Source: an uncultured Gammaproteobacteria bacterium
Lineage (GTDB): Bacteria > Patescibacteriota > Patescibacteriia > UBA1558 > 2-01-FULL-52-15
Length of the DNA stretch: 49,086 nt
Reading direction: 5' to 3'
Assembly (NCBI GenBank): GCA_964441335.1
Contig: CAYTUI010000003.1
Span: forward strand, 1 to 49,086
The notes beneath the pieces are model-generated. The model saw nothing but the letters and a program-made list of their open reading frames with translations, had not been told where the DNA came from and searched no databases. Below, one piece after another: positions 10,911-15,671 of the stretch. The position numbers and the translations under genes were made by a program. Each line of letters begins with the position of its first letter. Position 1 is the stretch's first letter.

Positions 10911-11906
10911 ATGGAACAAGTAGACAAAAACAAAGCTGCCCAAGAGGCCATGAGTCAAATCCAAGACCGTTTTGGAGAAGGCTCAATTATGAAGCTGGGC
11001 GACACCAAAACCTTGGATGTCGCGTCATTTACCACCGGCTGTTTGTCATTAGACATTGCTTTAGGCATTGGCGGAGTACCCCGCGGCCGAGTCATTGAAA
11101 TTTATGGCCCGGAAGCTTCCGGCAAAACGACTCTAGCTCAACACATTGTAGCCGAGGCGCAAAAACAAGGCGGAGTAGCCGCTTTTATTGACGCCGAGCA
11201 CGCTCTGGATCCTGAATATGCCAAAAAGATAGGCGTTGACGTTAAGAACCTCTTAATCTCCCAACCAGATACCGGGGAACAGGCCTTAGAAATAGCCGAG
11301 ACCTTAGTCCGATCCAACGGCGTTGATGTGGTAGTTATAGACTCGGTGGCCGCTCTGGTGCCTAAAGCTGAACTGGAAGGCGATATGGGTGATTCACATA
11401 TGGGACTGCAAGCCAGACTTATGAGCCAAGCTTTAAGAAAAATAGCCGGCGTGGTTCACAAAAGCCAAACCACCGTTATTTTCATTAATCAAATCAGAAT
11501 GAAGATCGGCGTCTTTTTCGGCAATCCCGAAACTACTACCGGCGGCAATGCCCTGAAATTCTACTCCTCTGTCAGAATCGAAGTCCGACGCGCGGCGCAA
11601 ATTAAACAGGGCGAACAAATAATCGGCAACCGTGTTAAAGCCAAAGTGGTAAAAAATAAAATTGCTCCACCTTTCAAGACCTGCGAATTTGACATCATGT
11701 ATAATGAAGGGATTTCCGTCTCCGGCGACATCTTGGATCAGGGAGTAATCTATGGTGTTATTACCAAAGCCGGCAACTCCTACAGTTATGGCGAAATTAA
11801 GCTAGGCGTGGGCCGTGAGAATGCTAAAACATTCCTTAGAGGCGATAAAAAACTTATCGGTCAAATACGAAAAGAAATCCTGAAAAAAGCCGGTATCAAT
11901 AATTAG
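10911..11906 (+). CDS. recA: Recombinase RecA
   Basis: [30 protein letters not shown]; ATG at 10911 preferred over TTG. Confidence 0.99.
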
Positions 11907-11912
11907 TCTTAA

Positions 11913-11946
11913 ATCACAAAACCCCGGTAAAGCGGGGTTTTGTGAT
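11913..11946 (+). terminator. Intrinsic terminator after recA
   Basis: atcacaaaaccccg-gtaaag-cggggttttgtgat perfect stem. Confidence 0.85.
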
Positions 11947-12014
11947 AGAATAAATAAGTAATGATATTAGGAGTTTGTAGGTACATAGTTATGTGCTATT
12001 AATTTTTGCATAAT

Positions 12015-12599
12015 ATGCTCGAAGCAATTAAAAACCTAACATGGGAGACCTCAGATATATTGAGTATAGTCGCCATTGTTTTATCAGTAATTTTTTCCGT
12101 TCTTACAATCATCCTAACCAAAAAAGAGAAACCAAACGTAATGCCGTATGGTCAAAATGTCTTCGACGGTAACCACCTTGTCCTAGATTTTAACAATCCT
12201 AGCGACACCAATCTTCATGATCTTATACTCCTAATAAACGGCTTTGACTCAGAGTTTAACGAAATTTCATCTCTACATTTTCAAGATAAGTATTTATTCA
12301 CTATTAGTTCAAAATCTATGTTCAACTATGGATTTAACGTCGGTGACACCTGGGCGACCAAAAACTTCTTCTTCAGAGTACGTCTAAAGGGTAAATATTT
12401 CTCACGTTTTCCAATATTCGCAACAAGAAAATTTGAACAAAAAATTTGGTACTCAGCAATAGTACGAAAATTAGTTGAAGAAAAAATTAGTATCAAAATA
12501 TCGACTACTCACCGAGATGAAATTAATAGGCTCGAAGCAAAACATAAGGTGGCGCTAAAAGAATACGAAAAAAATATTGACGAAAAGTTTAAAAATTAA
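12015..12599 (+). CDS. Hypothetical protein with N-terminal membrane anchor
   Basis: ORF with hydrophobic segment ILSIVAIVLSVIFSVLTIIL. Confidence 0.7.
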   Translation: MLEAIKNLTWETSDILSIVAIVLSVIFSVLTIILTKKEKPNVMPYGQNVFDGNHLVLDFNNPSDTNLHDLILLINGFDSEFNEISSLHFQDKYLFTISSKSMFNYGFNVGDTWATKNFFFRVRLKGKYFSRFPIFATRKFEQKIWYSAIVRKLVEEKISIKISTTHRDEINRLEAKHKVALKEYEKNIDEKFKN

Positions 12600-12668
12600 T
12601 AGCAGATAACATCGCATATCTGGCTCATCAACCTTGCTTTATTTTTCCCTTTAGATTATGCTCTGCCT

Positions 12669-12811
12669 ATGAATAAAAAGTCTTTAAAATTCTCAAAAAA
12701 AGGAGACTAGATCCAGAGAAACCAGCAGAGCGGAAACAAATTATTGAAGAAGCAGTTAACCGGACAGTCAAAGAATATGGAAAGGCTCTAGAAAAACTAG
12801 GAGCTGAATAG
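12669..12811 (+). pseudogene. Frameshifted small antitoxin-like ORF upstream of the Doc fragment
   Basis: ATG frame stops after 13 aa; the -1 frame reads ...KQIIEEAVNRTVKEYGKALEKLGAE*, resembling C-termini of small Doc-linked partners; A-runs at the junction. Confidence 0.5.
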
Positions 12812-12813
12812 TT

Positions 12814-12975
12814 ATGTCCTATTTTCTTTCAGAAAACGACATCCTACACCTTTGTCATTCATATGCCCAGACGCATCTCTCATTTAATGAGCCGATTCCG
12901 TCTTTTGAGACGAGATTTAAAGATAGGTTAGAATCCGCGCTGGCTTCTCCTCAACAATCTCAATACACCGATTGA
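12814..12975 (+). pseudogene. N-terminal fragment of a Fic/Doc (death-on-curing) family protein
   Basis: MSYFLSENDILHLCHSYAQTHLSFNEPIPSFETRFKDRLESALASPQQ resembles a Doc N-terminus (LESAL..P) but ends before any HPFxxGNxR motif. Confidence 0.6.
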
Positions 12976-13000
12976 CAAATAATGTATATAGGCTTATACT
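12972..13000 (+). promoter_or_regulatory. Sigma70-type promoter
   Basis: TTGACA-17 nt-TATACT. Confidence 0.75.
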
Positions 13001-13006
13001 AATAAC

Positions 13007-13080
13007 ATCCTTGAGTTATCCATAACTTAAGGGGATAAAATACCATAGAAAACGGCCCGCGCGTTGCGTGGGTCGTTTTT
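13007..13080 (+). ncRNA. Putative ~74-nt small RNA convergent with the NYN gene
   Basis: Promoter, hairpin ccttgagtta-tcca-taacttaagg, then terminator with T-tract; G-U pairs favour the + strand; no ORF. Confidence 0.55.
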
Positions 13081-13118
13081 AATATCTAGAAAAGCTCTAT
13101 ATGCCCTAATTTCGTTTG

Positions 13119-13745
13119 TTACCTATCTTCCGAATTCTTTAGTTCGTCTCCGTGGATTTCAGAAAAGTCAGCGATATCAAAATATCCATCTGTACCGGTT
13201 CTAAGCTCGCTGGATATGCTTCCATCTGTCGAAAAAACATATACTCGTTTTGGTTGTTTTAAATTTCTCAAATAGCTAGCCAGCGAAAGAAAATCCGAAT
13301 CACCTGTAATAAGCACGGCAATATCATAAGCGCTTGAATATTTTATCGCATCAATTGTCAATTCTACATCAAGATTGCCCTTTTCAATCGTTTGTGGCTC
13401 CCCGGATTCCTGATCATAAATTAGCCTACCCTCTTTGTCGCGTAAATTAATAGTCTTTAAGGCCTTCTTGATAACACAAAAGTTCAATCCTTTCTCTAGG
13501 TAGACAAGAAAATTATGAAACCTCTTTATCTTATCGCCAGGTCGTGTTCCTTCGGGAGGATAAGCAACGTAATAAAATATCTTAAAAATATCTCCCTCAA
13601 ACTTCTTGGAGAAAAAGCTACTTAATTTTTTAAGCTCGAGCATTCGGCCTATAGCCTTGTATACACCCCAAAGATTCCCCGCATCTATAAAAACGGCTAT
13701 TTTAGAATTACGGGTGGCAGACTCTTTTGCCTTATTCTTAAACAT
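13119..13745 (-). CDS. NYN domain (LabA/DUF88, PIN-like fold) predicted ribonuclease
   Basis: VFIDAGN, KGNLDVELTID and LITGDSDF acidic motifs; start MFKNK chosen. Confidence 0.92.
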   Translation of the reverse strand: MFKNKAKESATRNSKIAVFIDAGNLWGVYKAIGRMLELKKLSSFFSKKFEGDIFKIFYYVAYPPEGTRPGDKIKRFHNFLVYLEKGLNFCVIKKALKTINLRDKEGRLIYDQESGEPQTIEKGNLDVELTIDAIKYSSAYDIAVLITGDSDFLSLASYLRNLKQPKRVYVFSTDGSISSELRTGTDGYFDIADFSEIHGDELKNSEDR

Positions 13746-13960
13746 AGAACTAATTAGAAAGATAAAAACTACACAGAAAATAGCATAAATATCATATTCT
13801 CGCAACCTTCGACTGTGTCAAACCAGATCAAAGCCCCCTTGTTATAATAGTCAACTACAAATATATATAAATCCTACCACCTAATTAAATAGGGATTTTA
13901 TGCTACAATAACACTGCTAAAATAACACCCATAAATATACCAAAATAATTTGTCAAAACT

Positions 13961-14553
13961 ATGATCAAGGCTATCATATTTGATGTCGGAGGAGTATACA
14001 TGAAAGGCAAGACCTCCGATTTTGTTAATCGCTCTTATAAAATACTTAATATCAACAAAAAATTTAAACCAGGCAATAGTTTGGTATTTGATAAAAAATT
14101 GAATAAGGGTTTAATTACCCATGAACAATGTTTTAAAAAATTTTTCAATGTACCTATAACTGAGCAACAGATGAAAAAGATAAAACAAGTATGGATATCA
14201 ACTTGGGCACCGACAAAAGAAATGATTAATTTGATAAAAAAACTTTCCAAAAAATATACTCTGGCAATATTATCTAACTCCGACTCATTAAATTCACGAA
14301 ACTATGCTACCAAAGGTTGGTATTCATATTTTGATCATTTAATTTTATCCCATGAGTTGGGTATCTTAAAACCCAATAAAAAAATTTACCAAATTGCCTT
14401 GAAAAAAATTAACCGCCCAACCAAAGAGTGTATATTTTAGATGATCGCGAAAAAGCGTTATTACCCGCGGCTAAATTAGGTATGAAGACAATCCTCTTCA
14501 AATCTTTAACGCAACTTAAAAAAGAATTTAAATCAAGAAATATCTCATATTGA
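13961..14553 (+). pseudogene. HAD-family phosphatase with 1-nt frameshift near 14438
   Basis: IIFDVGGV, LSNS, KP motifs; after ECIF the motif IV DD plus the C-terminus (DDREKALLPAAKLGMKTILF...SY*) continue in another frame. Confidence 0.8.
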
Positions 14554-14578
14554 CTCAAAACTCAAGGCGTGCTAAATT
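14550..14578 (+). promoter_or_regulatory. Sigma70 promoter for the small-ORF cassettes
   Basis: TTGACT-17 nt-TAAATT with TG extension. Confidence 0.6.
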
Positions 14579-14586
14579 CCTTTATT

Positions 14587-14616
14587 AGTTCTTTAGCAAA
14601 ATATTCTTTGGGGGCG
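14587..14616 (+). repeat. Cassette left repeat, copy 1 (boxA-like motif plus inverted-repeat arm)
   Basis: agttctttagcaaaatattctttgggggcg; 29/30 identical to 15430-15459. Confidence 0.9.
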
Positions 14617-14636
14617 CACACAACAAGGAGGTTTTA

Positions 14637-14858
14637 ATGTCATATCGGAAGTCAATTCTTGGCTACAGTCTCGCTATAGCGTTGGGCTTCGGGATTATGC
14701 TGATTGGCGATCTCAAGTTCAAGAATGACATACCTATGATTGGTCTGGGGATTGGCCTCGCTGTGATCAGTACATTTATGCTCTACATCACCTTGATGAG
14801 GCGAGTCGGCCAGCAGATCCGTGAGCGTCGGGCACGTGAATCTCGTCAGAGATCATGA
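14637..14858 (+). CDS. Small 2-TM membrane protein with Arg-rich tail
   Basis: AAGGAGG SD, two hydrophobic helices. Confidence 0.75.
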   Translation: MSYRKSILGYSLAIALGFGIMLIGDLKFKNDIPMIGLGIGLAVISTFMLYITLMRRVGQQIRERRARESRQRS

Positions 14859-15091
14859 ACCAAGGTCAATCTACGATAGGGGGTATGATGACAAGAGACA
14901 ACTGTGAACACACGGGCGAATTGGGCATTGAACTAACGGAGCTAGTGGAGGGACTGGTGATCATACTGATCGGGGCACTCCTGGCTTTTGCCTTTTTCTA
15001 CCTATCCACTATTCCGCCATATGCTGATGTAGGCCCACATATCAGTACAGGACACCCCGTCTTCTCGCCCTATGGGTGGGCTCTTGGTTAA
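14855..15091 (+). CDS. Small 1-TM membrane protein
   Basis: ATGA overlap with previous stop; one hydrophobic helix; start uncertain. Confidence 0.55.
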   Translation: MNQGQSTIGGMMTRDNCEHTGELGIELTELVEGLVIILIGALLAFAFFYLSTIPPYADVGPHISTGHPVFSPYGWALG

Positions 15092-15137
15092 TCAAGGGCT
15101 CTAATTCCGAGAAACAGCCAAGAACAGGAGGCTCACG

Positions 15138-15332
15138 ATGGACATCGTTCGGTTCAAGAAGACCGTTCTTGTGATCGTGGCAGTGATCAGCATCGGAACG
15201 ATTGTGGTCGGCATGTTCTGCGGGATACCCAGCGTGGCAGGCCTCGGTGGCTTCATTCTACTTCTGGACATGCTGGCAGTAGGCTGTATCGTGCTTGACC
15301 CACCGCAGCGCCGCATCAAGCGACAACTGTAG
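15138..15332 (+). CDS. Small 2-TM membrane protein with basic tail
   Basis: CAGGAGG SD, two hydrophobic helices. Confidence 0.75.
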   Translation: MDIVRFKKTVLVIVAVISIGTIVVGMFCGIPSVAGLGGFILLLDMLAVGCIVLDPPQRRIKRQL

Positions 15333-15356
15333 CGGAGAAGCAACACGCCCAAATTA

Positions 15357-15398
15357 GAGACAAGGGAACGCCCTTGTCTCGCCCCCTAAGAATATTTT
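15357..15398 (+). repeat. Hairpin plus cassette right repeat, copy 1
   Basis: gagacaaggg-aacg-cccttgtctc, then cgccccctaagaatatttt (18/19 reverse complement of 14598-14616). Confidence 0.9.
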
Positions 15399-15429
15399 CA
15401 GTTAAATGTCTATGGATTAAATATTCTTA

Positions 15430-15459
15430 AGTTCTTTAGCAAAGTATTCTTTGGGGGCG
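15430..15459 (+). repeat. Cassette left repeat, copy 2
   Basis: agttctttagcaaagtattctttgggggcg. Confidence 0.9.
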
Positions 15460-15476
15460 TTCAACAGGAGGAGAAG

Positions 15477-15671
15477 ATGAGTAAGAAAACCGTTGTAGGT
15501 ATCTTGATCGGCGGCGTCGGTATGGTGGTTAGTATCGTAGGCTCGATACAGTCAGTCACATGGCTCAGGCTGGCCGGTGCTTCCATCATGTTGTTTGGCC
15601 TCATCCTGGTCGCACCAGCATGGATGCGTGAAGTGCGACGGGCTAAAGAGGAGATTCGCCAAAGACATTAA
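15477..15671 (+). CDS. Small 2-TM membrane protein with basic tail
   Basis: CAGGAGGAG SD, two hydrophobic helices, REVRRAKEEIRQRH tail. Confidence 0.78.
   Translation: MSKKTVVGILIGGVGMVVSIVGSIQSVTWLRLAGASIMLFGLILVAPAWMREVRRAKEEIRQRH

Follow-up and report, generated by a model that had tools for sequence, protein, structure and literature searches.

In toxin-antitoxin (TA) systems of type III, an RNA repeat array lies upstream of the toxin gene in one operon and is cut by the toxin (PMC8167048), and AbiF/RCd22 offers a precedent for a nuclease-fold toxin that is blocked by a bound non-coding RNA (10.1101/2025.04.15.648962). Further structured RNAs have been described beside protein genes, including the DUF3800-I to -XI, drum and skipping-rope RNAs (Weinberg et al. 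2017). These comprise several unrelated structures, often ended by a terminator, of unknown function; each is linked to a single protein family, whose gene may lie in either orientation, and the authors had no hypothesis for them (PMC5737381). Here, we describe a predicted small RNA that faces the gene of an NYN/LabA predicted ribonuclease in a 49,086-nt stretch of patescibacterial DNA (hereafter, the window), which is contig C3 of a 1.27-Mb genome. An initial annotation of the window had proposed that the two form an RNase-RNA module that moves as one unit, and our comparative analysis identified the same RNA unit beside every close homologue of the NYN gene with enough flanking sequence.

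A conserved predicted RNA unit convergent with NYN genes

The initial annotation had recognized a near-consensus promoter, a 10-bp hairpin near the predicted +1 and a terminator favoring the plus strand, together delimiting a transcript of ~74 nt without an open reading frame (ORF). Each of these elements is present in the window (Table 1). The promoter (TTGACA-17-TATACT) has 11/12 consensus matches and is the best of 14 sites within positions 11500-15000; since 11.4 sites are expected from shuffles, the promoter alone is not beyond chance. Positions 13005-13082 fold at -35.4 kcal/mol on the plus strand (z -6.5, 0/200 shuffles) versus -20.1 kcal/mol on the minus strand (z -2.0, 8/200 shuffles). 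A simple terminator scan did not pick up this terminator. The predicted RNA ends 38 nt from the NYN stop codon (13119-13121). Out of 1148 crudely called ORFs of the genome, 14 have a convergent promoter with at least 10/12 matches within 155 nt of the stop codon, and the NYN gene is the only one that has a terminator hairpin too, which argues that this layout is not that of a generic gene end. No Rfam family reached its gathering score for the RNA element in the 20 loci scanned, and the e-value matches to Rfam in the window were rejected as leader-type chance matches far below the cut-off. Three sets of metatranscriptome contigs contained nothing that matched the window, which speaks neither for nor against transcription.

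Table 1. Features of the NYN-RNA locus and its flank in the window.
Feature	Position	Strand	Remarks
Sigma-70-type promoter of the small RNA	12972..13000	+	-35 TTGACA 12972-12977, -10 TATACT 12995-13000
Predicted non-coding RNA	13007..13080	+	74 nt; +1 = purine of conserved 5' RUC
Hairpin 1	13009..13032	+	10 bp; variable apical loop (CAU in window copy)
Conserved linker	13033..13048	+	GG-N8-CC-AUAG
Intrinsic terminator hairpin with U tract	13048..13080	+	15 bp
NYN/LabA predicted ribonuclease	13119..13745	-	208 aa; PF01936 E 6e-19, 69.3 bits vs gathering 24.2
Candidate weak NYN promoter	13791..13821	-	TTGACA-19-TATGAT, U-rich leader without Shine-Dalgarno (SD) motif; read from sequence
Fic/Doc-family gene remnant	12814..12975	+	Fic motif missing; flank, outside module
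Frameshifted remnant of the small gene preceding the Fic/Doc gene in relatives	12669..12811	+	flank

For the comparative analysis, 191 loci were gathered, with two large scans keeping the best 80 of 302 and the best 80 of 375 confirmed relatives. Of these loci, 165 were close homologues (tblastn E<1e-30), the window included, and three of the 165 had less than 130 nt of flank. The RNA motif was found in 162/162 close homologous loci with enough flank (27 duplicates; 134 distinct loci, all inspected), and the promoter and hairpins are thus conserved at the 3' flanks of NYN homologues. The search motif is loose, and because RUC, GG and one C are built into it, no variation could appear in these columns; even so, it lost no locus. 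The shared architecture comprises RUC, hairpin 1, GG-N8-CC, (A)UAG or AAG, the terminator and a U tract, with a length of 66-89 nt (median 74) over the 134 distinct loci; a complete AUG ORF of at least five codons is present in only 2/134 RNAs. Both G and the first C of the linker are found in 134/134 loci and the second C in 128/134. A promoter with at least 9/12 matches precedes RUC by 4-10 nt in 122/134 loci (by exactly 6 nt in 115/122), whereas a window of the same size on the other strand holds a promoter in 1/134. This 6-nt spacing between the -10 box and RUC places +1 on the purine, which corresponds to 13007 in the window. The terminator has at least five U in 8 nt in 133/134 loci (median -21.4 kcal/mol) and touches or overlaps the NYN stop codon in 126/134. 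Therefore, the proposal that the RNA ends ~40 nt from the stop codon of the convergent gene is correct for the window and does not extend to the family, in which the 38-nt gap is atypical.

The promoter strand folds better in 134/134 loci, and hairpin 1 positions (n=1340) include 266 G-U versus 11 A-C. We built an alignment of 106 of the 134 loci, leaving out 28 that were near-redundant, long-looped or mis-anchored. In this alignment, 90.7% of cells are paired and double changes number 268 (shuffles, 83.6; slid controls, no more than 126); relatedness inflates the double-change counts, and in the window's clade the terminator is not aligned correctly. In hairpin 1, 6/11 pairs are changed on both sides and 94.7% of cells are paired. 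RNAalifold recovers both helices unaided. A covariance model scored 28/29 held-out loci at 80-91 bits, the remaining one at 29 and the window RNA at 50 bits, and it matched 0/20 distant or housekeeping NYN loci.

Among proteins 45-55% identical, the RNA core is 62-63% identical, versus 28-29% at fourfold sites, in the promoter spacer and in the outer flank. The conservation of this core where fourfold sites are saturated indicates that its primary sequence is under selection, which perfect cis-antisense pairing would not need. The GG-N8-CC-AUAG linker likely corresponds to a protein-contact region. Conservation drops to background beyond -36, and the -35 box is the outer edge of the conserved cassette. 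RNA subtypes track protein clades, which demonstrates co-inheritance, as distinct from co-evolution.

Several additional features were considered and rejected. A small ORF encoded opposite the RNA (AUG to stop on the NYN strand) is found in 83/134 loci and is absent from the window's clade, so it is not conserved. In many loci, the linker can pair with the NYN M-D-V codons; the duplex energies are near those of shuffled sequences (80/133 better), and GAT use is 95/112 versus 76% elsewhere. A two-pair GG:CC helix is unsupported, as the second C changes in 6/134 loci without compensation.

The predicted nuclease and the distribution of the cassette

PF01936 is the sole Pfam family in the window NYN protein. 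The predicted model (pLDDT 93) has 2qip as its best PDB match (E 5e-11), followed by the MARF1 NYN, and a search of a protein atlas returned NYN clusters only. The acidic active site (D21/D126/D149/D151) is intact in the window, and the four aspartates are present in 133/133 homologues. The PIN classification lists this NYN cluster under function unknown (PMC5499597). The CRISPR-linked NYN of B. fragilis is a Mn-dependent non-specific endoribonuclease that requires the first aspartate (D13-type); the purified recombinant protein is an active RNase and a proposed trimmer of CRISPR RNA (10.1101/2024.04.08.588522). From a homologue, we infer that the window NYN would be a metal-dependent RNase.

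The predicted expression signals are lopsided, being strong for the RNA and weak for NYN. A promoter with at least 10/12 matches is located ahead of the RNA in 102/134 loci versus ahead of NYN in 16/121, and an SD-like motif precedes NYN in 5/121 loci versus 124/866 crude starts in the window genome. In 49/87 co-oriented loci, NYN lies at most 60 nt from the upstream gene and may be read through from it. At one locus (G081; L200:178-1722, minus strand), a single open frame of 514 residues joins an alpha/beta hydrolase to an in-frame NYN behind it, with the RNA intact, perhaps through cassette insertion into a gene end.

A model scan of 150 class genomes, some of which may overlap the training set of the model, detected 10 strong matches (73-89 bits) in addition to the window RNA, each of them at the 3' end of an NYN gene or of what remains of one. 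The adjacent NYN is open and full-length in seven cases, frameshifted in one (G182), reduced to a C-terminal part in one (G207) and to a ~49-codon remnant in one (G080); close NYN genes in these genomes have the RNA in 8/8 cases. The sole broken RNA (G206) lies beside an NYN stub of ~14 last codons, as read by eye from two overlapping contig ends. Hence, intact RNA beside broken NYN occurs, and intact NYN without RNA was not found (162 loci, 8 scanned genes). A phylum sample of 150 genomes contains one RNA and one gene, which are adjacent, and 85 genomes of the order contain four RNAs and four genes, all in the training set. The model matches once in the window genome (G000), and the RNA was found in 0/13 genomes of the same family, so that its spread is patchy. 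Weak matches (<33 bits) at L225, L268 and L288-L290 were rejected as ordinary terminators without NYN. In G206 (L226:1-300, L203:1-260), the loop of the RNA is interrupted by a short element bounded by terminal inverted repeats, and the NYN stub is followed by a REP-like repeat. In G207 (L193:1463-2440), the truncated NYN and its intact RNA directly adjoin a DUF3800 gene that is paired with a convergent DUF3800-V RNA, making a tandem of two units, each with a nuclease-like gene and a convergent RNA.

Neighboring genes belong to 101 families among 113 loci upstream and to 101 among 116 downstream (crude ORF calls). Since neighbors differ almost everywhere, NYN and the RNA would travel together, and on sequence grounds they are a mobile two-part cassette of Patescibacteria. 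The conserved promoter and hairpins, the genome-wide co-occurrence and the changing neighbors thus uphold, on the sequence side, the proposal of a module that moves as one unit. Homologues of the window NYN carry the labels Patescibacteria and related candidate phyla. A Pfam family was assigned to 29 of the 70 upstream representatives scanned (101 families in total), many of them housekeeping. The plasmids searched yielded distant NYN only, and a TTGACA-type convergent promoter was found in 0/7 alphaproteobacterial loci examined, where the scan may miss their promoter type.

Outside the main family, distant accessory NYN genes have a convergent promoter of at least 10/12 matches within 155 nt of the stop codon in 31/43 loci, versus 2/19 in the housekeeping clade, which was defined by a protein motif and whose loci show pnp downstream. 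The short convergent units of the accessory genes differ by subfamily and recur within it. One consists of AGAAAAAUCAUCCAA and a terminator (L006, L007, L297, L298; AUCCAA is common with the main family), another of hairpin-GGCGGAACC-terminator (L238, L239, L241, L243) and a third of hairpin-GAUUUU-terminator (L018, L019, L024, L258, L280, L281, L283, L302). As far as these sequences indicate, each distant accessory subfamily appears to own a cognate RNA. It is quite possible, if slightly against the odds, that Patescibacteria hold a radiation of NYN (PIN-like) ribonucleases with each subfamily under its own self-promoted convergent small RNA. Such a class of RNA-antitoxin or RNA-cofactor nuclease systems would be new and distinct from types I and III. 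It could provide these genome-reduced bacteria with a main layer of addiction and antiviral defense, and it would parallel, with a PIN fold, the RNA-bound toxins that are linked to Cas13.

Other arrangements were noted among these loci. At L025:630-1900, L243:506-2100 and L253:716-2100, two different accessory NYN genes stand in tandem, and each of them has its own convergent promoter unit; at L025, an identical ~25-nt sequence around the -35 box closes both units, as in a stack of cassettes. The housekeeping NYN clade precedes pnp, and a conserved long hairpin leader lies downstream of NYN (L008-L010, L013, L014, L016, L028).

The order along the window is recA, a 197-aa gene, the frameshifted small gene, the Fic/Doc remnant, the RNA element and NYN on the minus strand. 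The Fic/Doc remnant ends after approximately codon 51, at the RNA promoter, and the DNA alignment breaks near the -35 box; the copy of a relative (L260) encodes 133 aa with Pfam Fic. Positions 12669-12975 correspond to a decayed two-gene Fic/Doc module (frameshifted small gene and truncated Fic/Doc gene), intact relatives of which were found in 29/200 other class genomes searched. Elsewhere in the window, four successive small hydrophobic ORFs (64-78 aa) without a convincing Pfam match occupy a GC-richer patch (14637-15671), and an imperfect inverted repeat detected as a blastn self-match directly follows recA (11894-11966). On the minus strand of G000:C19, another promoter, with a TTGACA match at around offset 12997 when counted on the reverse complement, precedes a small hairpin and a terminator-like hairpin within ~100 nt.

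Possible roles of the RNA

We propose, with a probability of about 0.5, that the ~74-nt predicted RNA is a protein-binding antitoxin of NYN, type III-like in action and not in layout. The near-consensus promoter would keep the RNA in excess over the weakly expressed NYN mRNA. NYN would recognize the CC linker together with the 5'-terminal base of hairpin 1, where RUC pairs with GG, and the RNA bound directly to the protein would hold the nuclease inactive. Upon a stop of host transcription (phage infection, stress) or loss of the cassette, the RNA would decay, and the freed NYN would cut cellular or phage RNA, resulting in addiction and probably abortive defense. The convergent layout may add an antisense or collision-type damping of the NYN mRNA. 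Recognition by the protein is suggested by the conserved unpaired bases and the fixed 5' end, and inhibition by an NYN never found without the RNA, by RNAs that outlast broken genes and by strong RNA versus weak nuclease signals.

A number of observations weigh against an antitoxin role. To our knowledge, NYN proteins are not known as toxins. Furthermore, the B. fragilis NYN was purified in active form and the available portion of that report does not mention toxicity (10.1101/2024.04.08.588522), so NYN proteins need not be toxins. The asymmetry in decay is based on four loci, one of them with a frameshift that may be an assembly error, and is tempered by the ORF being a larger mutational target than the 74-nt RNA. 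Defense-type genes (restriction-modification, GmrSD, AbiEii, Schlafen-type helicase, PD-(D/E)XK) account for only 6 of the 29 upstream neighbors with a Pfam family, a proportion for which no baseline was computed, and PADLOC matches are partial and weak. Viral contigs yielded no NYN protein match and none for the 18-nt motif (a single distant NYN profile match was found, with the element absent), and phage records yielded no member of the NYN-RNA family. Finally, on the NYN strand the hairpin has a U tract of at least four consecutive U in only 7/134 loci, which suggests that the NYN mRNA probably crosses the RNA gene and would thus provide a substrate for antisense control.

The conservation of the RNA would be explained equally well if it were a positive subunit of an NYN-RNA ribonucleoprotein, activating the nuclease or directing it to a fixed target (e.g., via the CAU loop or the linker). 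Extra domains are the usual source of specificity for NYN domains (PMC5499597), and the window NYN has none; close NYN proteins are basic (median pI 9.1 versus 6.3-9.0 in the housekeeping clade). However, an NYN deprived of a cofactor would be harmless, yet the RNA is missing in 0/162 loci and 0/8 scanned genes. The variable part of this single-copy RNA is a 5-20-nt apical region with no array, and the lack of a long variable segment disfavors a programmable guide of the CRISPR/TIGR-like kind. Nor does the RNA pair with the NYN coding region in a way that is conserved more than codon usage predicts, a search that did not cover other trans targets. Overall, we regard a cofactor role as unlikely, as we do control exerted purely in cis, in which the convergent transcript would silence NYN through antisense pairing with the mRNA 3' end or polymerase collision, with no RNA-protein contact. 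Cis control would suit the strictly convergent layout, the terminator at or over the stop codon and an NYN mRNA that probably reads through the RNA gene; the RNA would likely overlap this mRNA in its 3' region, and type I-like antisense pairing at the mRNA 3' end operates in convergent Bacillus systems. SymE/SymR combines an endonuclease toxin with an antisense RNA (PMC8167048). Nevertheless, cis control leaves the invariant unpaired bases and the 5' RUC across saturated divergence unexplained, the cassette does not extend past the -35 box and thus offers the NYN mRNA no conserved terminator downstream, and the RNA overlaps the coding sequence by a few codons at most, a long way from the start codon.

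That hairpin 1 is a decoy, mimicking the tRNA-Met anticodon loop and soaking up an anticodon nuclease, is hard to credit. VapC-type PIN toxins cut initiator tRNA, CAU is present in the apical region of 95/134 RNAs (CAUA in 79), and a genome tRNA with a CAU anticodon (G000:C1:6515-6591) has the loop CCCAUAA, in which a C stands where U is usual in tRNA. On the other hand, CAU is missing in 39/134 RNAs and lies off-centre at the 3' side of a loop whose apical length ranges from 5 to 20 nt, shared ancestry could account for the bias, and the RNAs of distant subfamilies have no CAU. It is highly improbable that the unit is a DNA-level site (a recombination site or miniature mobile element) or a plain terminator with no functional RNA, even though it marks one edge of a mobile cassette and the G-T asymmetry also fits folded single-stranded DNA. 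The fixed promoter spacing, U tract and constant length argue against such a site, as do the single copy per genome, the layout at 1/1148 ORFs and the strong matches beside NYN only. In comparison with integron attC sites, the GTT...AAC order is the reverse of the attC core consensus, and there is no conserved neighbor, although no integrase-directed search was made.

Relation to known systems

We found no description of the NYN-RNA family in the literature searched, which did not include supplements that could hold one. NYN and LabA are absent from the main text of PMC5737381 (its supplement was outside the search), and a term search of the main text of bioRxiv 10.64898/2026.09.22.753630 retrieved neither name. 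The NYN-associated RNA is a new RNA family, and together with NYN it likely adds a new variant to the RNA-controlled nuclease modules. The function of most bacterial NYN/LabA proteins is given as unknown (PMC5499597), and our finding supplies a specific RNA partner, with natural variants in the hundreds (the two scans confirmed 302 and 375 relatives). If the antitoxin proposal is true, a PIN-like fold and a new gene layout join the short list of RNA-held toxins. The finding also bears on the defense of candidate-phyla bacteria with tiny genomes, and a 200-aa nuclease switched by a 74-nt RNA could serve as a compact tool.

Like type III TA systems (ToxIN, CptIN, TenpIN, AbiQ), the cassette combines an endoribonuclease gene with a structured small RNA, for which inhibition through direct binding is proposed (PMC8167048). 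Unlike in those systems, the RNA is located downstream and convergent in 134/134 distinct loci, is a single unit without tandem repeats between its own promoter and terminator, and faces a toxin candidate of the PIN-like NYN fold and not of the ToxN/CptN/TenpN family. AbiF/RCd22, a HEPN-type toxin with a non-coding RNA, relies on direct RNA-protein neutralization in cis and in trans; however, AbiF is from another protein family, RCd22 carries two repeated motifs, and a prophage houses the system (10.1101/2025.04.15.648962). The antisense-strand small RNA at a toxin-like gene resembles type I TA systems with a convergent antitoxin and SymE/SymR, but NYN is a 208-aa soluble protein and not a small hydrophobic peptide, and the RNA misses the start region and is conserved in sequence as if protein-bound. 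The B. fragilis CRISPR-associated NYN, VPA0982 (2qip) and the MARF1 NYN share the fold and catalytic aspartates, whereas the cassette differs from them by its dedicated small RNA and by having neither CRISPR nor another conserved neighbor. The nearest descriptive analogue of the NYN RNA is the group of DUF3800-linked RNAs. The NYN RNA differs from these in its partner, in being always convergent and in matching no DUF3800 Rfam model, and it suggests a testable hypothesis for such similar orphan RNAs.
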